From: an uncultured Campylobacter sp.
Lineage (GTDB): Bacteria; Campylobacterota; Campylobacteria; Campylobacterales; Campylobacteraceae
NCBI GenBank assembly: GCA_963530525.1
Contig: CAUSEA010000005.1
Span: 4,269 to 68,268, forward strand
Length of the DNA stretch: 64,000 bases
Reading direction: 5' to 3'
Shown: piece by piece, positions 52,294-63,966 of the stretch
Layout of the letters: each line of letters starts with the position of its first letter
Position numbering within the stretch: position 1 is the stretch's first letter
The notes under the pieces: generated by a model
Databases searched by the model: none
The model's input: only the letters and a program-made list of their open reading frames with translations
Told to the model about the DNA's origin: nothing
Translations under genes and position numbers: made by a program

Positions 52294-53169
52294 ATGGGAA
52301 GTTGGTTTGACATAAGATATTTAAGAGAACCGCGTGGCGATACGGCCTCTGGAGTGGGGCAGGGGGTCGCCGCGATCGGCGATAGCCTAAGCAAGCTCGG
52401 CGAGCTAGGACGCGCCAGAGAGAAGTTCGATTCAGACCTTGCGCGTCAAGCGCGAGAGGAAAAGATGGACGCGGATAAATTCAACTACCAAAGATTTAAA
52501 GACGAGCGAGGCTACGAGCTTGATAGAAAGAAGCTCGATCACGCGATCCTCAACGACGATCGAGATTTTGATCTGAGTCGGAGGAAATTTGACAGAAGCG
52601 TCTTTGAAAACGATCGCACTTACGGACTTGCCGCCGCTCGTTTCAACGCAGAGCTCACCGAACAGGGGCAAAAGCGCGCCGAGAAGCGAGCCGAAGCCGC
52701 GGCAAAGGCGCAGCAGACGGCAGACAATGTAGCGTATCTACGCAAGCTATACCCGAAAGAAAGCGCGGGCTATACCGACGAGGAACTCGCAAAATGGGGA
52801 AATAATCTCGAGAAAAACTTTAAAGAGGACAAGGTAGATATTTTCAAGAAAAATATCCCGGTGGATTCCAAATTCGTCGAGCAATACGGCGACAGCGGGC
52901 ACGTAACTTGGGATGACAAAGGAAACTATTATACAGATCCTTGGCTGATGGAAAAGGTAAATATCGATAAGCAGCGCGAGGCTCGCCAAATGGATGAGCT
53001 CGGCGATCCGCAAAACCGCCGCGACAATATCAAGGCGCTGATGAATCAAGGGGTAACCCTTACAGACGCAAAGGCGAAAGTGGACGGCGCGATCGAGTGG
53101 AAAAAGAAAAATCCGAACGCTAAATTTAGCTCAGCGCTTGATAGCGATTTGGACGACGGAGCGAACTGA
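52294..53169 (+). CDS. putative ejection protein
   Basis: Charged helical repeats (DRDFDL.R.KFD); precedes the giant gene. Confidence 0.55.
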   Translation: MGSWFDIRYLREPRGDTASGVGQGVAAIGDSLSKLGELGRAREKFDSDLARQAREEKMDADKFNYQRFKDERGYELDRKKLDHAILNDDRDFDLSRRKFDRSVFENDRTYGLAAARFNAELTEQGQKRAEKRAEAAAKAQQTADNVAYLRKLYPKESAGYTDEELAKWGNNLEKNFKEDKVDIFKKNIPVDSKFVEQYGDSGHVTWDDKGNYYTDPWLMEKVNIDKQREARQMDELGDPQNRRDNIKALMNQGVTLTDAKAKVDGAIEWKKKNPNAKFSSALDSDLDDGAN

Positions 53170-56100
53170 TGACTGCAAGAGATTTTTTGGGCAACGAGCG
53201 GATCGCCGAGCTTGAAAGCAAGGGCTACAGCCCCGAATATATCAAAGCTCTTGCAAAGGAACAATACGAGGCGAAAAAGAAAGAGCTTGCGGACAGCGGA
53301 GTGAGAGAGGACATCGCAAAGATGGCGATCGCCCAGAAGCTCGACGCGGATAATGCCAAAAAGCTCAACGACGAGGCAACGGCGAGCGCGTCGGATAGGT
53401 TTTTTAGAAACGCTTTTGATACCAGCGCCGACGAAAAAGCGGTAGATGATGCGGATCAGAGGTGGCGAGAACTCAACCCCGATAAGATCGACATCGCAAG
53501 CCGCGCCGGACGGTTAGTAAACAGGCTCAACCCCCTAACTCTAGGCCCTAAAATCATGGATAAAGCGGCGGATATAAAGCAAAACGGACTTGCCGCCGAC
53601 AGCCTTGACAAGGACTTTGCGTTTTTCGCGGGAGCCGGCAAGCTCCCAAATCAATTCGGCCGCGCCGTAAATACCGCGGGCGAATGGGTGTCGGACAAGG
53701 TGGGAGCCGAGGGTGCGAAGCAGTTTTTTGGGGAAAACCGCAAATTTTTCGACGATAACGTAAAGGAGCTTGATAAGATCATCGCCGAAAACAACAAAGA
53801 GTGGGGAATGCTCGGCGAAGCGCTGATTGATCCTTTAAACGTCGCGCCGGCGGGGATATTCACCAAGGGCGCCAAGATCGCAAATATCGCAAAAAGCGCG
53901 GGCACGGGCTTCGCCCTGGGCGTAGGAATGAACGAGCTAAGAAACGCGGGGGATGATCGCCCACTAGAACAGCACGTCAAAGACGATTTACTCGGCGGTC
54001 TGGTGATGGGCGGAGCGAACGCGCTTTTTAGCGCCCTTTCGCGCGGCAAAGTAAATAACGTCTCAAACCTCGCGGAGGATCTGCGCGGCACGTCAAAAGC
54101 CGCAGACGCAGGGCAAAGAGCCGCAGACGGCGCGGAGAGTGCCGCAAAAGCGGCGGATGACGCAGCGGCGCTCGATGACGCTCTGGACGGGCTGGGAGGC
54201 ACGCAAAAAGAGGGCGTAGGCTCCGCCCCGCAAGGTGCAAAAGCAAGCGATGCAGCGCAAGGTGCCCAAGAAGCAAAAGTAGGCGAGCTCGCGAAAACGA
54301 ATGCGAGCGACGCGGCAGGGGGCGAGCAGAGCGCGGCTCGTGCGGCGGATGATGCGGCGGCGCAGACAAACGCGGCTTCCGCCCCGCAGGGCGCGCAGGA
54401 GATCAAAGTCGCAGACGGGACGCAGGAGATCAAATCGTCCCCGTCCCTTGCGGCGCAGGGCGCGCAGAATGCCGAAGCCGCGAGCGGGGCGCAATCAAAT
54501 CTTGAGCCTCGCGAGCAACTAAAGCAGTATCTCAAAACCCAAAACGTCGCGGATGATGCCGCAGATAAAATTTTGGGCGAGCTTGACCGCGGTGCGAGCC
54601 GCTCGGCGCATTTGAGCGAGGATGTATTCAAAAAGGTGGATGAGCTTTATGAGCGCGCAAACCGCCTTGGGTGGGCTAGAGAGTATCAAAGACACGTCGC
54701 CGATCGCGTGAGCGAGCTAGCTCAGATGAGGGCGGACGGCATAGAGCGCTTTGCGGCTATGCAAAGAGAAGCGGAAAGGATAGCAAAGGAAAATCCTACC
54801 CTTTCAGCTCTTGCACAAAGAGAACTTCTAAACTCGCGCATAAAACCTACGGAGGCGGAGCTTCGATATACCCGCGCCTATAACGACGGCGCGGACGTCG
54901 ATCCGATCTACGCCGGGCAAAATTTCATTTGGCGGGTGGAAAACGACATCAAAGCTCACCCCTACACCACCGAGCAATACGGCGCGCGCTTGGCGAGCAA
55001 AGGCTTTGCTCCCGACGTGCAGGCTGCGGCGATGCAGGCATACGACGACGGAAACATAAAATTTCTAAAAGATTATATCGACGCTAAAGTCGCAAAAGCC
55101 GAATACGACGACATCGTAAACAATCAAATGAAAGATTGGATCATTAAAGATGGCAAGATAAGGAGAGCACAAAATGGCAAAGCAAACGCAGGAGGCGCGG
55201 TGGAGCGCGGAGCCGACGCAAACGGCGCAGGCGCTGGCGGAAAAAATGAGCGAGTATCAAAGGGCGTTTCTGATCTCGGCGATACTCCAAGCCGAGCGGA
55301 GCGGGGACCGGGAGGCGATGCGCAAGTATCATCGCAGCGCGGATCTGCTGCTATACTCGGCGGCGAGGATGCAAAAAATGCCGCGGGCGATGAGCTCGTG
55401 GGACGATACGGGGCCGCTTCAGGCGATAGCGCAGCTGATGCCGCAGCTTCAAAGCAGCGAGTGGTTTCAGCACAAGATGCGGCAGATCAAAGCGGCGCAG
55501 CGCTAAAAAGCGAGGCGCGCAGCGGCGATCTTGCGGCAAAAGAGGGTGCAGGCTCCGCCAAGCAAGGCGCAAAGCTTGACGAGGATATGAAAAAGGGCTT
55601 CGTAAACGTCAATCTTACCTCTCATCTTGCGGGAGGGCTTAGCGGCGGCATGCTTAACGCTACCGACGAGGAGGGTAAATTTAGCCCCGAGAGATTTGCA
55701 GCGGGCTTCATCGGCGGCTTAGGCGGCGTCGCGGTGATCCGAAAGGGCTTTCGCGCAAGTATGAAAGCCTACGCCGCAAAGCAGGCAAAAGCCTATCCAA
55801 CGCTTGCAAACGATCGAGCTGATCTTTTCGCGCAGGCTCTAGGCGACGAGATCAAATCTCGCGCCAAAACGACGCTTTTTAATGCCGCAGAATTTGCTAA
55901 GACCAAAGTCGCAAACAAGACGGGGCTTGATTTCGAGCCTCAAATTTTCGCGGGAGAGAAAGCCTACGCCGAGCTGAAATATGCCCCCGTGCGGGCGGAT
56001 AAGCTAAGCAAAGCGCAGGCTATGGCGAAAGAGGGAAAAAATGAGTTAGAAATATGGCGAGATACGGGCTGGTTTCGGGACAAAGACGGCGCTTGGAAAT

Positions 56101-59100
56101 TTGAGATCGGCGACGCCGACGCGAAACTAAATCCTAAATTTCAAAGCGGCGGCAAGCTCGGGGATCTGCTAAAGCACGATGAGCTGTTTAAGGCTTATCC
56201 CGAGTTAAAGGACGTAAAGGTCGTAAAGATGCAAAGCGACGCTCCGTCCAGCGCGATGCTTGCAAAGGATGCGGGGCAAAAAGAAAAGCGCGGCATCTAT
56301 AACGTGACCTACAATAATAAAATAGCAACCTACGTAAAGCAAGACTTAGATCAAATAGAGGGAGCTTTAAGATATGCGAGGGGCGATAGAAGCGAAGGGG
56401 CAAAGCATATAAAAATAAGACACCTTAACAATGAGGGCAGCGAAGGATATGTAAGCAAAAAAGAGCTTTTAGATTTAGGCGAGAGTATGCGTAAGTATTT
56501 AGCAAAATATAAAGAGCCCTTTATAAACGAACGCAATGCTAGAGTTTATGAATGGCAAGATGACAAAGGGGTGAGATTTAGGCTTGTAGCAAGTAACAAG
56601 TCCGCAGGGACGCCTTACACGGCCGAATTACCTCGACCTGCGGACTTTGAGGACATTATAACCTTTTACTCTGACAGAAACCTTAAAAAGCCCATGGAAT
56701 TTGAAAACCCAAAGGTCAGATATGACGCAAATTTGCAAAATTGGCACGAGCACAGCGCGCCTATCACCAAGAACGCGGACGGAAGCCCGAAAGTGTTTTA
56801 TCACGGCAGCTCTGCAAAGGATATTACGGAGTTTAAAGGCGAGTTTGATAAGAGCGGATATGGGTTTTGGTTTTCGCAGGAAAAAGAGATCGCGAATGAA
56901 TTTAAAGAACACGGCAAAATTTATAAAGTCTATCTAAAATCAAGCAATCCTATCGATCTATCTTTTCCATACAGCGCAAAAGCGCAAAAGCTTCTGGACG
57001 AAGCCGAAGCCAAAGGGATAAACACCGAGCTCTACCCCGATAAACAAAGCGACGGCTTTAAAAAATTTTTGAAGTCGAAAGGCTATGACGGCATAGTTAT
57101 GCAAGACATCGACGGAGTGGATGCGAAGCCGTATCTTATCGTCTTTGACAGCAATCAGATCAAGCATGTCAAAAATAGCGGCGATTTTAGCGCAAGCCCG
57201 AATATCTATCAAAGCGGCGAGGCGGGGTATTTCGATCCCCAGAGTAACACGATCGCCCTTAAAAATTTAAAAGACAGATCCACGCTGATGCACGAGATCC
57301 AACACTGGGTGCAGAGCAAAGAGGGCTTTGCAACGGGCGGCACGGGCGGCGATGCGAACTACGCGAAGCTGCACGGCGAAGCGGAGGCTAGAAACGTGCA
57401 GACGCGCCTAGGCTTGGACGATGCCGCAAGAGCACAAAAAGACCCGCTAAGCACCTTTGACGTTAGCCCGGACGATACGATCGTTTTGCGAGACGGCGGC
57501 GTGAATGCAAACGAGGAGCCGCTTAAGTTCAAAGCAAGCGAGATCGAAAATATAGGAGGCGAGATCAAAAAGCGCCGCCCAAACATCGAGCAGGAGGTAG
57601 AGCAGAGCGTAGAGCAAATTTACAAGGACAGCTACAAAAATCACGACACCGCAGGCGAGGTTCTCGAAGCCATAAGGACGGGCAATTTCGACGCGCTCTC
57701 GCAAGGGGTGCAAACGAACCTTTCCGAAAGCCAACTCGCGCGGCTCAAAAAGGACATCGCGGGTGCTAAGCTAACCCACATCAGCCGCGACGGCTTCACA
57801 TTCAAAAAGCGCGGCAAAAACGGCGACGAGCAGATGATATTCATCGATATGGACGAGAGCGGCAAGGCGCGCATTAACGCGTATTCAAAGGCTCATATTG
57901 ATGAGAGTATCCGCGCAAATGAAACGATGTTCGATCACCTCTTCGGCGGCGATGAGGCGCTGAAAAATTATAGCTTTGAGACCAAGGCTAAATTTCTGAA
58001 CGAAAAAGACCCGATCAAGGCGGAGCAGATTCTTAAAAAAGCCGATCAAAGGCGCTTTGCGGCGCAGATCGCTAACAAAAGCAAGCAGGAGCAGGAAAAG
58101 CTTCAGGCGGAGTATGCTCGCGCGGCGCGGCAAGCCGATCCTTTCAACCCCGATATGCCTACGATGAACGATCTGCTGGGTAAGACGGACGCGCTTTTGG
58201 GACCATACGGCGGCGCGGACGGCAAGTGGGCGCAGTTTGTCGATACCCTTTGGCGCAAGGGGATCAACAAGTATGAAAACGCGGTAGATCGCATCTTCGA
58301 GGGCGAAAATACCCCCGCTTGGGTGAAAAAGGGGATGGGCGTCCTCGATCTGCGAAACGCGGCAAAGCGGCAGATAGACGGAGCGATCGAGAGCTTTTTC
58401 CGCGAGAGCGCGGCTATTAATGCGCAGGCTCGCACTGCGGCGAAGTATCTCGACAAATTTGACGCCGCTCAAAGTGAGCAGCTATTTAACGCTCTGGATG
58501 GAAAGATAGCTAAAGCTGATCTGCCGCAGGAGCTGCAAGCGACCTATCAAAAGCTGCGCGACGCGATCGATCATAACGCAAACGAGCTCATCAAGGCAGG
58601 CGCGCTGAAGCAGGAGAACAAGCTAACTGATTACATCGGACACTACTACGACGAGTATATGCAAAAAGAGCGAGGCAAAATAAGCAGGACGTTTGATAAA
58701 TTTTTCGCCCGTAAAGACCTGAGCGAGGCGCAAAAAAGAGCTCTAGGGCTTCGCACGGACATCAGCTTCGTAGTCGCAAATACTCTCGCAAAGCAGCGCA
58801 CGCAGCTTCTCAAAGCCCGCGCGCTTGAGGGTATAGCAAACCGCTTCGGGCTCGATGAGATCCCTGCCGCCGCAAAGCAGGGACAATACGTGCGGATCAG
58901 CGACGAAACCGTCGGAGGAGGCATAAAGAAATTCGGCGCGCTCGGGGGCAAATATGTCCCAAAAGAGGTGGCGGAAGCTCTGAAAAGCACGCAGGCTCTG
59001 GGCGGACAGCTCGGCGCGCTTGAGAAATACTGGCAGCCTCTGATCGATCATATAAAGGTGAACGTGACGGTCAAGAACCCGTTTACGCACGTTTATAACG

Positions 59101-60527
59101 TCGCGAGCAATGCCGTGCTGGCGTTTTTGCACGGCGACGAAAAGGCTCTTGCGAGCTGGGCGCTTTTAGGACGGCAGCAGCGGCAGGAGTATTGGAAGCT
59201 CGCGCGCCGCTTGGGACTGGATAGCGCTATGGACGATCTGGAGGGAGCGATCAAGGGGCTAAAGCCTAAAAATGATAGCGAGGCTTTCGGCATCGTCGGC
59301 AAGGCTATGGACTTTCTAAGCACCGCGGGCAAAAATATCTACATGAGCGAGGGTTCGGCGCTGGGTAGGGCGGCCAGAAAAGCCTACGCTTGGGAGGATG
59401 AAATTTTTAAGATCGCGCGATTTAAGAAAAATCTTGATGCGATCGCCGCAAAACGCGGATATGCTGCGGGGGACCTCTCTAAATTTAGCGAAAAGGAGCT
59501 TGCAGCGGCGATGAGCGACGCGCAGTATCACTACGTCGATTATAGCACCCATTTCAACGGCTTTTTGCGGAAGAGCGACAAGTGGGGACTGATGCCGTTT
59601 TTGCACTACTCCGTCAAATCGACGCCGATGGTGATCAAGGCGATACTCAAAAACCCGCATCGTTTCGCGATGATGCAGGCGGCCTTTATCGCCGCGGACG
59701 CCGCGGGGCTGTCGCTAAGCTCGATTATCGCAGATACAGAAAAGGAAAATCTAACCAAGCCGAAATGGGCGCAAAGCTCGAAATTCCCTAACGTTTTCGG
59801 ACTCAAAGCGTGGGCGAGGATAGGGGATAGCGATACATATTTCAACGCGGGACGTGCCGCGCCCGGCTTTCGTTTCGACGACGTTTTTGAGGGCGGCTGG
59901 GGCTTCGTGGGCGGGCTAGTCAATATCGCAAGCGGCAAATCGACGCTGGGCTACAACATCACCTCCGAGGACGATCCAAAGGCCGTGAAAGTCGCCAAAA
60001 GCGTCAAAGAAGCCGCGAAAAACTACCTACCTACGCTTACGATCGGCAGATACGGGCAGCAGCTCGGCGAGCAGGCTCTTTCAGATATCACGGGCGATAA
60101 AGATTTCGCGCCTAAAGACTACAACAAAGACGAGCTCGGATACGCGGGCATCCTGAAGCGAGGCGTGGGCGCGCGCCGCTTCAATCAGCAAAAGGAGCTC
60201 AACGCCGAACTCGGCAAGCTACGTAAGCAGCGCGAGGAGCTCGAATATGTTAAGGTGCCCGATAGCAAGGACGCCGACAAGGTAGAAAAGGCGGTCAAGC
60301 ACAATGAAAAACTCGAAAAGATGAGTGCTTCGGAGAAAGCCGAAAAGCAGAAGCAGATCGATCACAAGCTTGAAATTTTCAAAGAGGTGGCGGACGCTGA
60401 GGGGTTTGCTTTCGACGTGCAGAGCCTCAAGCGGCTACGCGACGAGAAAAAGCAGCGCAAATTCGCGCCCAAGAAATTCGATCCCGCGCTAATCTCCCGC
60501 CCGCAGATCGGGAAGTTTTCGCAATAG
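53169..60527 (+). CDS. large polyvalent (injected) protein: LPD23-like, BECR nuclease-like, ART-like and zincin HExxH domains
   Basis: IWRDTGWFRDKDGAWKFEI, GAKHIKIRH...IITFYSDRN, DGSPKVFYHGS...GYDGI..FDSNQIK and TLMHEIQHWVQ motifs. Confidence 0.8.
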   Translation: MTARDFLGNERIAELESKGYSPEYIKALAKEQYEAKKKELADSGVREDIAKMAIAQKLDADNAKKLNDEATASASDRFFRNAFDTSADEKAVDDADQRWRELNPDKIDIASRAGRLVNRLNPLTLGPKIMDKAADIKQNGLAADSLDKDFAFFAGAGKLPNQFGRAVNTAGEWVSDKVGAEGAKQFFGENRKFFDDNVKELDKIIAENNKEWGMLGEALIDPLNVAPAGIFTKGAKIANIAKSAGTGFALGVGMNELRNAGDDRPLEQHVKDDLLGGLVMGGANALFSALSRGKVNNVSNLAEDLRGTSKAADAGQRAADGAESAAKAADDAAALDDALDGLGGTQKEGVGSAPQGAKASDAAQGAQEAKVGELAKTNASDAAGGEQSAARAADDAAAQTNAASAPQGAQEIKVADGTQEIKSSPSLAAQGAQNAEAASGAQSNLEPREQLKQYLKTQNVADDAADKILGELDRGASRSAHLSEDVFKKVDELYERANRLGWAREYQRHVADRVSELAQMRADGIERFAAMQREAERIAKENPTLSALAQRELLNSRIKPTEAELRYTRAYNDGADVDPIYAGQNFIWRVENDIKAHPYTTEQYGARLASKGFAPDVQAAAMQAYDDGNIKFLKDYIDAKVAKAEYDDIVNNQMKDWIIKDGKIRRAQNGKANAGGAVERGADANGAGAGGKNERVSKGVSDLGDTPSRAERGPGGDAQVSSQRGSAAILGGEDAKNAAGDELVGRYGAASGDSAADAAASKQRVVSAQDAADQSGAALKSEARSGDLAAKEGAGSAKQGAKLDEDMKKGFVNVNLTSHLAGGLSGGMLNATDEEGKFSPERFAAGFIGGLGGVAVIRKGFRASMKAYAAKQAKAYPTLANDRADLFAQALGDEIKSRAKTTLFNAAEFAKTKVANKTGLDFEPQIFAGEKAYAELKYAPVRADKLSKAQAMAKEGKNELEIWRDTGWFRDKDGAWKFEIGDADAKLNPKFQSGGKLGDLLKHDELFKAYPELKDVKVVKMQSDAPSSAMLAKDAGQKEKRGIYNVTYNNKIATYVKQDLDQIEGALRYARGDRSEGAKHIKIRHLNNEGSEGYVSKKELLDLGESMRKYLAKYKEPFINERNARVYEWQDDKGVRFRLVASNKSAGTPYTAELPRPADFEDIITFYSDRNLKKPMEFENPKVRYDANLQNWHEHSAPITKNADGSPKVFYHGSSAKDITEFKGEFDKSGYGFWFSQEKEIANEFKEHGKIYKVYLKSSNPIDLSFPYSAKAQKLLDEAEAKGINTELYPDKQSDGFKKFLKSKGYDGIVMQDIDGVDAKPYLIVFDSNQIKHVKNSGDFSASPNIYQSGEAGYFDPQSNTIALKNLKDRSTLMHEIQHWVQSKEGFATGGTGGDANYAKLHGEAEARNVQTRLGLDDAARAQKDPLSTFDVSPDDTIVLRDGGVNANEEPLKFKASEIENIGGEIKKRRPNIEQEVEQSVEQIYKDSYKNHDTAGEVLEAIRTGNFDALSQGVQTNLSESQLARLKKDIAGAKLTHISRDGFTFKKRGKNGDEQMIFIDMDESGKARINAYSKAHIDESIRANETMFDHLFGGDEALKNYSFETKAKFLNEKDPIKAEQILKKADQRRFAAQIANKSKQEQEKLQAEYARAARQADPFNPDMPTMNDLLGKTDALLGPYGGADGKWAQFVDTLWRKGINKYENAVDRIFEGENTPAWVKKGMGVLDLRNAAKRQIDGAIESFFRESAAINAQARTAAKYLDKFDAAQSEQLFNALDGKIAKADLPQELQATYQKLRDAIDHNANELIKAGALKQENKLTDYIGHYYDEYMQKERGKISRTFDKFFARKDLSEAQKRALGLRTDISFVVANTLAKQRTQLLKARALEGIANRFGLDEIPAAAKQGQYVRISDETVGGGIKKFGALGGKYVPKEVAEALKSTQALGGQLGALEKYWQPLIDHIKVNVTVKNPFTHVYNVASNAVLAFLHGDEKALASWALLGRQQRQEYWKLARRLGLDSAMDDLEGAIKGLKPKNDSEAFGIVGKAMDFLSTAGKNIYMSEGSALGRAARKAYAWEDEIFKIARFKKNLDAIAAKRGYAAGDLSKFSEKELAAAMSDAQYHYVDYSTHFNGFLRKSDKWGLMPFLHYSVKSTPMVIKAILKNPHRFAMMQAAFIAADAAGLSLSSIIADTEKENLTKPKWAQSSKFPNVFGLKAWARIGDSDTYFNAGRAAPGFRFDDVFEGGWGFVGGLVNIASGKSTLGYNITSEDDPKAVKVAKSVKEAAKNYLPTLTIGRYGQQLGEQALSDITGDKDFAPKDYNKDELGYAGILKRGVGARRFNQQKELNAELGKLRKQREELEYVKVPDSKDADKVEKAVKHNEKLEKMSASEKAEKQKQIDHKLEIFKEVADAEGFAFDVQSLKRLRDEKKQRKFAPKKFDPALISRPQIGKFSQ
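55174..55506 (+). CDS. candidate nested +1-frame gene (110 aa) inside the polyvalent gene
   Basis: AAGGAG 8 nt before the ATG; protein-like helical composition while the host frame is disordered. Confidence 0.6.
   Translation: MAKQTQEARWSAEPTQTAQALAEKMSEYQRAFLISAILQAERSGDREAMRKYHRSADLLLYSAARMQKMPRAMSSWDDTGPLQAIAQLMPQLQSSEWFQHKMRQIKAAQR
56596..56648 (-). ncRNA. candidate antisense small RNA inside the BECR-like domain
   Basis: Minus-strand GTTATAAT at 56662-56655; perfect 11-bp stem 56598-56608/56637-56647. Confidence 0.5.
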
Positions 60528-62409: not shown

Positions 62410-63966
62410 TCACGCCCAGGCTTCGGCGCCCTCGTAGTCCTCGTCCTCGTAGTCCGGCTCGTCAAATTCTCGCCCTACGATATATTGTTGTAAATACGCG
62501 AGCGCATCCATAAGGTCGTCCTCTTTGCTCTCGACTTCGCTATCGAAGCTAAGGAGTTGCGCCTCTAGCTCAGTGCTTGAGTCTATGCTTGCGTTGTGAT
62601 AAATTTGCCCCGTGCGATAATATGGCTCTAGGTTTGATATGCGGGTATTTTTTGCCTTTCCGCCGTGGCTAAGTTGATCAATGGGTAGGTGCACTCCCGT
62701 CATTTTTTGTATGATGTCAATCGTATAGAAAAAATCGTTTTGCATTCCGGCTTTTTCGATTCCTATCCTGGTGCAGCCGAATATTTGAAAAATCCGTATG
62801 ATCTCGACGCTCTTTTCAAACGGCGTCCAGTGCCCGGCGCTGATGTCTATTATGAATATGCGATTTCTGTTATCGACAGCCGAAGTTATCATTGCTGTTT
62901 GGTCGCGACCATTCGCGCTTGCCAGGTCGATTGTTGTAAAAATTTGACATTTTGCAAGCTCTATTTTTTCGCCGCCTAGCGTTAAATTTATGGCCTTTCT
63001 AATTTGCAGCGTTCGTATATTTACGCCGTCTGTAATATTTAGGGCTTCCGGTTCTGCGCTGATGTCGTATTCTACGCGCTCGAAGTAGCGGAAATACTCG
63101 CGTTTGAAAATCGCTCTTTGTGGATCGATCGCCGCGCACATATATTCCTGGTAAAATTCATTTGCAAGCCCTTTTGAAACGAGTTGATTTTGTATTGCTT
63201 TTATGCGCGATAAAGGGAAACGAGACGGCCAGGCGCTCGCGCCGTTTTCTATGATAGGAATTTTTATATGTTGCCATCCCTGCTTGTTGGCTTCTTCTAT
63301 ATTCTCATTGTTCACGATATTGTTTAAGATGCTGTCCTCGTGCAGGATTGTGCCTAACACTACCACTTTGCCGCGAGTTGGGTGCACGGCGGGCAGTAGA
63401 TCCGCATAAAACCAGCCTCGAAGTTTTTGGCGGCTAGCCTTATTTCCAACCGGGAATTGCCCGTCTTTGCTCTCTAAATCATCGACGATGATAAGCGTCG
63501 GACGCATATTATCGATATTAGCGCCGCGCGGATCCTGCCCAGAGCTGAGCGATACTACGTGACAGGTTCGCTCCATATCGTTTCCGTTTCGGTCTTTTTT
63601 GCCGCGATTAACGACGACCTCTATACGGTCTTTGTTCCAAATCTTACCGCGCTCTATCGCGTAACCCTTGGCGACTGCTTTATCAATCGAATTTTTGATT
63701 GCTTCGACAAATAGCTTTGCTTTCGTATCGTTTGCAGAAGCTATCATAATGAAAGGCTCTGCATAAAAATACAGCCTGCTGACGACGTAAATTTTATTGA
63801 GTAGCGTAGTTTTTGCGCTACCGCGAAATATAACTACGGCTTTGTGTTGATCCTCGCCGTCGATAAATTTCAAAACGTCCAGGTGAAATTTGGGCGTTTT
63901 ATTCTCAAAGATTTCCGGTTCTATATCTTTTGCAAATTTTAAATAAAGCTCTGGAGGAATTTTCAC
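62410..63966 (-). CDS. terL: terminase large subunit
   Basis: FRGSAKTT Walker A, IIVDDLE Walker B, QEYMC, and TIDLA/DDLMDAL RNase H-like nuclease motifs. Confidence 0.9.
   Translation of the reverse strand: MKIPPELYLKFAKDIEPEIFENKTPKFHLDVLKFIDGEDQHKAVVIFRGSAKTTLLNKIYVVSRLYFYAEPFIMIASANDTKAKLFVEAIKNSIDKAVAKGYAIERGKIWNKDRIEVVVNRGKKDRNGNDMERTCHVVSLSSGQDPRGANIDNMRPTLIIVDDLESKDGQFPVGNKASRQKLRGWFYADLLPAVHPTRGKVVVLGTILHEDSILNNIVNNENIEEANKQGWQHIKIPIIENGASAWPSRFPLSRIKAIQNQLVSKGLANEFYQEYMCAAIDPQRAIFKREYFRYFERVEYDISAEPEALNITDGVNIRTLQIRKAINLTLGGEKIELAKCQIFTTIDLASANGRDQTAMITSAVDNRNRIFIIDISAGHWTPFEKSVEIIRIFQIFGCTRIGIEKAGMQNDFFYTIDIIQKMTGVHLPIDQLSHGGKAKNTRISNLEPYYRTGQIYHNASIDSSTELEAQLLSFDSEVESKEDDLMDALAYLQQYIVGREFDEPDYEDEDYEGAEAWA

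Follow-up and report, generated by a model that had tools for sequence, protein, structure and literature searches.

A dual-coded antisense promoter-like box and structured RNA at a predicted RNase domain of a Campylobacter prophage, with a possible role as RNA antitoxin

How the producers of PBECR domains survive them is, to our knowledge, unexplained. Up to 26% of polyvalent proteins contain one of these predicted RNase domains (PMC5512222). A prophage of an uncultured Campylobacter sp. gives the question a particular form, as the codons of a BECR-like domain also hold, on the opposite strand, a promoter-like box followed by the sequence of a foldable RNA. What would such an RNA do inside the gene of a predicted nuclease? 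The features that bear on the answer are the following, numbered within the window, i.e., the whole stretch of 64,000 nucleotides of contig CAUSEA010000005.1 that was analysed.

53169..60527, plus strand: polyvalent protein gene of a temperate prophage, 2452 aa, 7.36 kb, with LPD23 at aa 926-988 and ART-PolyVal at aa 1203-1337
56280..56714, plus strand: BECR-like predicted RNase domain, with conserved His43 (56406-56408), His48 (56421-56423), and Ser131 (56670-56672)
56682..56686, minus strand: TTAAG element, 21 nt upstream of the -10 box; the Leu135 codon is CTT in 17 of 19 divergent alleles
56655..56663, minus strand: predicted sigma-70 -10 box GGT-TATAAT, written in Ile-Ile-Thr codons
56598..56648, minus strand: predicted RNA unit of ~50 nt, with +1 at 56648 (A after C)
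56637..56647, minus strand: 5' arm of stem P1 (inverted repeat, covariation)
56626..56636, minus strand: conserved, probably unpaired internal-loop strand, ending in an RGUAAUU motif at 56626-56632
56612..56623, minus strand: P2 hairpin, a covarying 3-bp stem with a variable loop
56598..56608, minus strand: 3' arm of stem P1 (inverted repeat, covariation)

The prophage neighbours of the polyvalent gene include an integrase (28676), a CI-like repressor (38606), a portal (41332), a major head protein (43977), and a terminase (62410-63966). The place of the gene behind the structural genes suggests that its 2452-aa product is carried in the virion. Two further observations concern the surroundings: (i) the gene of the terminase large subunit (62410-63966) is read from the minus strand, so that it faces the structural genes of the plus strand, and is distant from the portal, and (ii) a 110-codon ORF in another plus-strand frame (55174-55506) overlaps the polyvalent gene in a low-complexity stretch.

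The domain at 56280-56714 is probably an RNase, as suggested by its active-site pattern together with a weak fold likeness. H48 and S131 are invariant and H43 is kept in at least 90% of the domain relatives in alignment A1, a pattern that agrees with the PBECR active site, namely a His in a helix and a Ser/Thr in the last strand (PMC5512222). An AlphaFold model from 54 relatives (pLDDT 88) places helices at residues 40-49 and 66-77 and strands at 88-93, 99-105, and 124-131, and contains the BECR feature "helix, then meander sheet"; the RNA-bearing loop is poorly ordered in it, with a pLDDT of 53 for block 111-120. Fold searches with the domain gave weak matches in Foldseek (best E 0.046) and VIA (best Z 5.3, rmsd 4.4, 95 residues aligned), the top 30 of the latter being mostly BECR RNases (CdiA-CT, BrnT, RelE/ParE, and colicin D/E5 chains). 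At the level of sequence, a Pfam search of the window's domain returned no matches, PBECR1-5 included, and a PDB sequence search with alignment A1 returned EF-hand-type chance matches only (best E 0.011). Six of the 54 relatives match DUF3519 (best 2e-11), which overlaps PBECR1 in protein P0054.

Relatives of the domain, some within mosaic proteins and others as solo genes, are present in 44 of the family's 201 genomes, in 19 of 301 from the order, in 61 phage records, and in 22 plasmid records. In NC_022355.1, the solo domain gene fills the virB11-virD4 gap and there is no space for an immunity gene. A solo RNase-plus-RNA gene between virB11 and virD4 of conjugative Campylobacter plasmids (L081:3995-4798) is a candidate addiction module or T4SS passenger.

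Within the domain, an earlier note on this DNA had read the Ile-Ile codons ATT ATA (56655-56660) as TATAAT on the minus strand, which is correct, with GGT before the TATAAT. Promoters of C. jejuni have an extended -10 element (TGxTATAAT) and, where a -35 box would stand, a periodic A/T pattern (PMC3656092), and the window's box has GG where that consensus has TG. A scan with a generic sigma-70 consensus found neither a promoter (no TTGACA) nor a terminator at the unit. The TTAAG farther upstream is presumably a promoter element as well, to go by the Helicobacter/Campylobacter consensus.

The relatives fix the codons of the box. Rows were grouped by a protein signature that is independent of the DNA (39 of 54 rows) and thinned to below 65% identity. 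Counted among kin, hence non-independent and not to be read as p-values, I126 is ATT in 38 of 39 rows and I127 is ATA in 38 of 38 (21 of 22 and 21 of 21, respectively, after thinning), while the control isoleucine I44 uses all three codons among divergent alleles (10 ATA, 5 ATT, and 4 ATC). A further 121 loci have ATTATA in 114 of 117 instances of the motif, five loci being without the motif. Codon use is also nearly fixed at F100, F141, S131, and L135, possibly in part through codon bias and in part through the promoter. Downstream of the box, a pyrimidine-purine step stands at -1/+1 in 38 of 46 units, at a fixed spacing to TATAAT.

The perfect 11-bp stem that had been reported at 56598-56608/56637-56647 is present; of the 10 inverted repeats that a search of the 7.36-kb gene reported, it alone is at 100%. 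A 59-nt unit folds with -26.7 kcal/mol (z -4.6), and the site, with a score of 14.5, ranks at the top of the 102 loose -10-plus-stem sites in the window. Genome-wide, however, 96 of 3920 such sites score 14 or more, so that the single copy is not decisive alone and the homologues decide.

In the relatives, the stem begins 6-9 nt past the box and varies widely in sequence, yet covaries, within a loop of 16-43 codons whose peptide is unalignable. Against synonymous recodings, 34 of 46 distinct loops have z below -2, compared with 0 of 46 control segments, and the antisense strand is the more stable one in 37 of the 46. When 28 divergent units are compared, a unit's own arms pair at nine of nine positions in 18 of 28 cases and swapped arms do so in 79 of 756. 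Seven close relatives have P1 paired at 98%, with two-sided changes in four of its nine pairs, and P2 paired at 100%, with two-sided changes in all three. A model-fitted alignment of 24 distinct rows, which is biased by the fitting, is 79% paired with two-sided changes in 12 of 14 pairs. The motif RGUAAU occurs 12 times in 11 of the 28 units, spread 8/3/1 over the reading frames, and is absent from the other 17. The consensus fold is thus P1, an asymmetric internal loop with an unpaired GGUYGARGUAAUU-like strand, and a variable P2.

This fold differs from the three-way junction with two hairpins that had been proposed, in which TCGG and GCC overlap by one G. Hairpin 1 pairs in 58% of cells among 12 homologues, a level that 111 of 500 shuffles also reach; among the seven close relatives it has no two-sided change, and its inner pair is broken in five. 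The junction is rejected on this ground. The earlier note had looked to homologues for two signs, ATTATA being kept and a stem covarying while the loop peptide diverges, and both are found; its dual-coded antisense promoter and structured RNA within an RNase-like domain are therefore upheld by the homologues, apart from the three-way fold and its non-covarying hairpin 1. An antisense peptide was also considered and rejected, as an SD-led antisense ORF is missing from 18 of 20 units and present in two only. Rfam contains no match to the window region at E ≤ 10 or to 11 loci at E ≤ 1.

The element is real and conserved across relatives, with selection at the nucleotide level on the promoter-like box as well as on the fold. 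A selfish or DNA-level hairpin insert (e.g., a recombination or single-strand signal) that lies beside a chance -10 box and makes no functional RNA has some appeal, given that in-frame inserts are cheap in a disordered loop (pLDDT 53), the stems fold on both strands, and units duplicate in tandem. Such an insert would leave the fixed spacing to TATAAT and the pyrimidine-purine step, the antisense-biased stability, the synonymous codon fixation, and the strand-specific reads at a relative (see below) without a cause, and we regard it as highly improbable.

The units travel with BECR-like domains and move between two gene positions. In a short-loop sister clade (support 99/94 in a tree of 49 of the 54 rows with the loop removed), the strand holds ATTATA in 0 of 12 cases, and a stem-plus-promoter unit instead stands directly behind the domain in 10 of 16, the misses being one truncated locus, L024, L039, and L041-43. 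A covariance model of 12 units has 27 matches in 84 sources and recovers downstream units outside its training set (L036, L253, L251, and, weakly, L034), of which the L251 unit lies beyond the stop codon. In 21 long proteins, with one domain at a protein end dropped, the peptide footprint of an antisense -10 box is found behind 13 of 26 PBECR/LPD3 domains and behind none of 22 others, against a background of 89 in 850 windows; it goes with the BECR-like domains and is missing behind ART, LPD23, and helicase domains encoded on the same mRNAs. The type of unit does not follow the protein tree: the nearest domain, L001 (75%), bears different units, and L008/L009 (60%) bear the window's type, which speaks against tight cognate pairs. 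At L023:1893-2050, the C-terminal strand of the domain is duplicated, and each copy has its own ATTATA and a different RNA unit.

Box and fold outlive loss of the enzyme, as orphans and as multi-allele arrays. At L255 and L250, units are kept at a deleted or frameshifted domain. The covariance model matches 13 of 150 genomes, of which G078, G083, and G143 have four in-frame units under one promoter in a protein without the RNase. The array units are identical at 47 of 49, 34 of 36, and 115 of 117 positions to units of three alleles, the proteins of which are 56-68% alike. The last strand of the array has decayed from FYSDRN to LSSDKN, with ATTATA and CTTAA retained, and the profile found no intact domain in these three genomes, matching one stop-ridden fragment only. 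The four-unit array from three RNase alleles, in a polyvalent protein without the RNase, is located at L271:1470-1730 (also L269 and L270), and the array protein has further promoter-plus-stem units behind its two other BECR-like domains. In genus g59, which is Helicobacter-type by gene content, related units stand behind other PBECR-like domains. Units of this kind are present in 41 of 60 genomes, and one of them is an orphan on the chromosome whose reading frame has decayed.

The exchange of RNA types across the protein tree would also suit a different partner, the unit being either a cofactor or guide that is bound and needed by the domain, or a decoy for nucleases that have no relation to the cis domain, whether anti-phage enzymes of the host or those of competitors. 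The P2 loops vary, several resemble tRNA loops by eye, and orphans would be useful without a cis enzyme. A general decoy, however, need not sit at every BECR-like domain, and arrays from which the enzyme has been lost would have no use for a cofactor or guide. The longest words shared with tRNA, 16S, and 23S equal those of shuffles (8.3 vs 8.0, 7.9 vs 7.9, and 8.7 vs 8.4, respectively), and a substrate-decoy shape is thereby without support. A partner of either kind seems improbable to us. As a lead only for a possible target, the post-hoc 8-mer GAGGUAAU of the window's unit occurs once in 16S (L280, position ~255, in a hairpin).

Expression was followed in relatives, in a set that comprises three runs of one study and one partial match, from strains 90-99% alike and with another PBECR family. 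The run search addressed a Helicobacter-type locus, and its contig-only, small-share rows did not enter the evidence. The distant orphan copy L126 is transcribed on the predicted strand. In run X21, antisense depth on L126 climbs from 153 upstream to 656 in the start bin (1500), then to 2194 and ~2700, with the rise falling within ~20 nt of the predicted start, while sense depth is ~3 over most of the locus; the strand was set from the mate orientation of the neighbouring gene, and the depth stems in part from a second paralogous copy. Runs X22 and X23 of the same study have the same depth shape, and X24, the partial match from a second study, has an antisense depth of ~150. The signal fades over 1650-1735, giving a transcript of 150-235 nt that extends well past the stem, in a library that would miss a species of ~75 nt. 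At the intact-gene copy L097, 99% of the pile consists of partly fitting reads from paralogous copies, and X24 has no pile there; expression of an in-gene unit is suggested, at a locus that these reads do not pin down. The L126 orphan itself (L126:1488-1760) lies behind a flagellar rod-type gene and beside a restriction-modification locus, is kept in many g59 genomes, and is highly transcribed; it is a candidate domesticated anti-phage RNA.

With a transcript that runs past the stem and no clear terminator at the window's unit, the RNAs may reach the domain-coding sequence and pair with the mRNA. Base-pairing antisense RNA could, on one hand, limit leaky expression of the toxin in the lysogen by pairing with its mRNA, in the manner of type I systems, and could, on the other, let arrays and orphans destroy the late mRNA of related elements that enter the cell, a form of superinfection exclusion like the one proposed for STnc6030. 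Complementarity is automatic, the array units are 94-98% identical to the sequences of other alleles, the expressed orphan transcript is 150-235 nt long, cis-antisense type I systems are used by H. pylori (PMC8322730), and STnc6030 offers a precedent (PMC7067206). Yet the site is remote from the ribosome-binding site, at ~3.4 kb inside the ORF, covarying stems tie up most of the RNA, and the conserved unpaired motif is independent of frame and unneeded for pairing in cis. In addition, the L251 unit is outside the ORF, and the units go with BECR-like domains, not with the ART, LPD23, and helicase domains that the same mRNAs encode. The arrays are complementary to their own host genes, so silencing would strike those genes for no gain. 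Base pairing is the main rival reading and, on these points, rather unlikely.

On balance, we think it probable that the antisense-strand unit is an RNA antitoxin that binds and blocks the predicted nuclease. An antitoxin or decoy is favoured over a cofactor or a cis silencer because arrays and orphans outlive the RNase. Binding to the protein is favoured on four counts: base pairing would not call for an unpaired motif to be conserved, an array that acted by pairing would shut down the gene it lies in, the prophage has to produce large amounts of the protein once induced, and in the plasmid case there is no evident gene for an immunity protein. On the other side stand the weak fold match of the domain, unit types that cut across the protein tree, the absence of RGUAAU from 17 of 28 units, an orphan transcript longer than its stem, and a likeness to tRNA and rRNA no greater than that of shuffles.

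An antitoxin of this kind might work as follows. The housekeeping polymerase of the host would make the RNA constantly in lysogens and plasmid carriers, and the RNA would occupy the RNA-binding cleft of the domain. The producer cell would be spared during protein synthesis and would resist the same domain when delivered by a related phage or plasmid, while a naive cell would receive the protein without the RNA. With the antidote in the domain's own codons, the pair could be shuffled as one piece among mosaic polyvalent proteins, and the arrays would correspond, at the level of RNA, to orphan immunity genes.

Of the known systems, type III toxin-antitoxin pairs (ToxIN, AbiQ) come closest in mode of action, as a structured small RNA would here check a predicted endoribonuclease, and tandem units occur in both. 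The type III antitoxin is upstream of its toxin, co-transcribed on the same strand with a terminator in between, and made of near-identical 36-nt repeats that the toxin cuts (PMC8167048). In contrast, the present unit is antisense, has a -10 box to itself, and lies within the toxin-coding sequence or immediately behind it; the window has one unit, and arrays are composed of unlike units. The enzyme, moreover, is one BECR-like domain among the several of a phage protein. The element would therefore work like a type III antitoxin but lacks two defining features of that family. With type I systems, the antitoxins of which are complementary to the toxin mRNA, it has only its position in common; the opposite strand provides the complementarity, except at the L251 unit as far as the ORF goes.

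Closer in protein content are the PBECR polyvalent domains themselves, which are predicted phage RNases with His and Ser/Thr, mosaic in Helicobacter jhp1044-type proteins and with solo copies in T4SS elements (PMC5512222); the main text of that paper does not contain the word "antisense", and its PBECR section proposes no immunity partner. STnc6030 of the Salmonella prophage BTP1 is an antisense RNA over a DNA-injection gene that is expressed in the lysogen and excludes superinfection (PMC7067206). It is about 500-790 nt long, and the injection protein has neither a PBECR match nor likeness to the present domain, so that homology is ruled out and STnc6030 is an analogue. In phage BTP1 (L285:4500-4615), a GGAGG site and a 23-codon hydrophobic ORF stand behind an antisense GGTTATAAT box, so that STnc6030 may, besides being an antisense RNA, encode a small exclusion peptide.

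In polymorphic toxin systems (CDI, T6SS, and MuF), orphan immunity-gene arrays collect antidotes for several alleles and are kept without the toxin. All such arrays that we know of encode proteins, whereas here RNA units are strung in frame inside a protein gene. The same units may be at work in H. pylori, where we take hp0488 to be a member of the HP1116/jhp1044 mosaic family. Four antisense RNAs of H. pylori are validated by Northern blot, namely HPnc2240 and HPnc2250 (hp0488) and HPnc5970 and HPnc6000 (hp1116), and the review that tabulates them (PMC8322730) lists no function or structure. They run antisense in genes of this mosaic family, the relatives of which bear promoter-plus-hairpin units with UGUAAU behind BECR-like domains, and the four RNAs may be these units; the supplements of PMC6123526 and PMC5385501 did not contain their coordinates.

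The RNA family has apparently not been described before. The literature searched, a body in which most subscription papers and bioRxiv supplements were out of reach, held no description of the element, and the available portion of a BECR preprint (10.64898/2026.08.28.747851) uses "antisense" 0 times. More broadly, and as a tentative proposal that may well prove too wide, PBECR/LPD3-type RNase effectors of phages and conjugative plasmids could form a polymorphic toxin system with immunity RNAs in the effector's codons, in which phages string allele-specific units into in-frame arrays and hosts such as Helicobacter domesticate orphans as abundant anti-phage RNAs. A dual-coded RNA antidote, if true, would answer how PBECR producers survive, would account for the low-complexity "linkers" behind these domains, and would give a function to unexplained antisense RNAs of H. 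pylori. It would also bring immunity arrays made of RNA into the conflicts among phages and between phages and their hosts, which would be categorically new if the reading of the arrays as immunity arrays is true.
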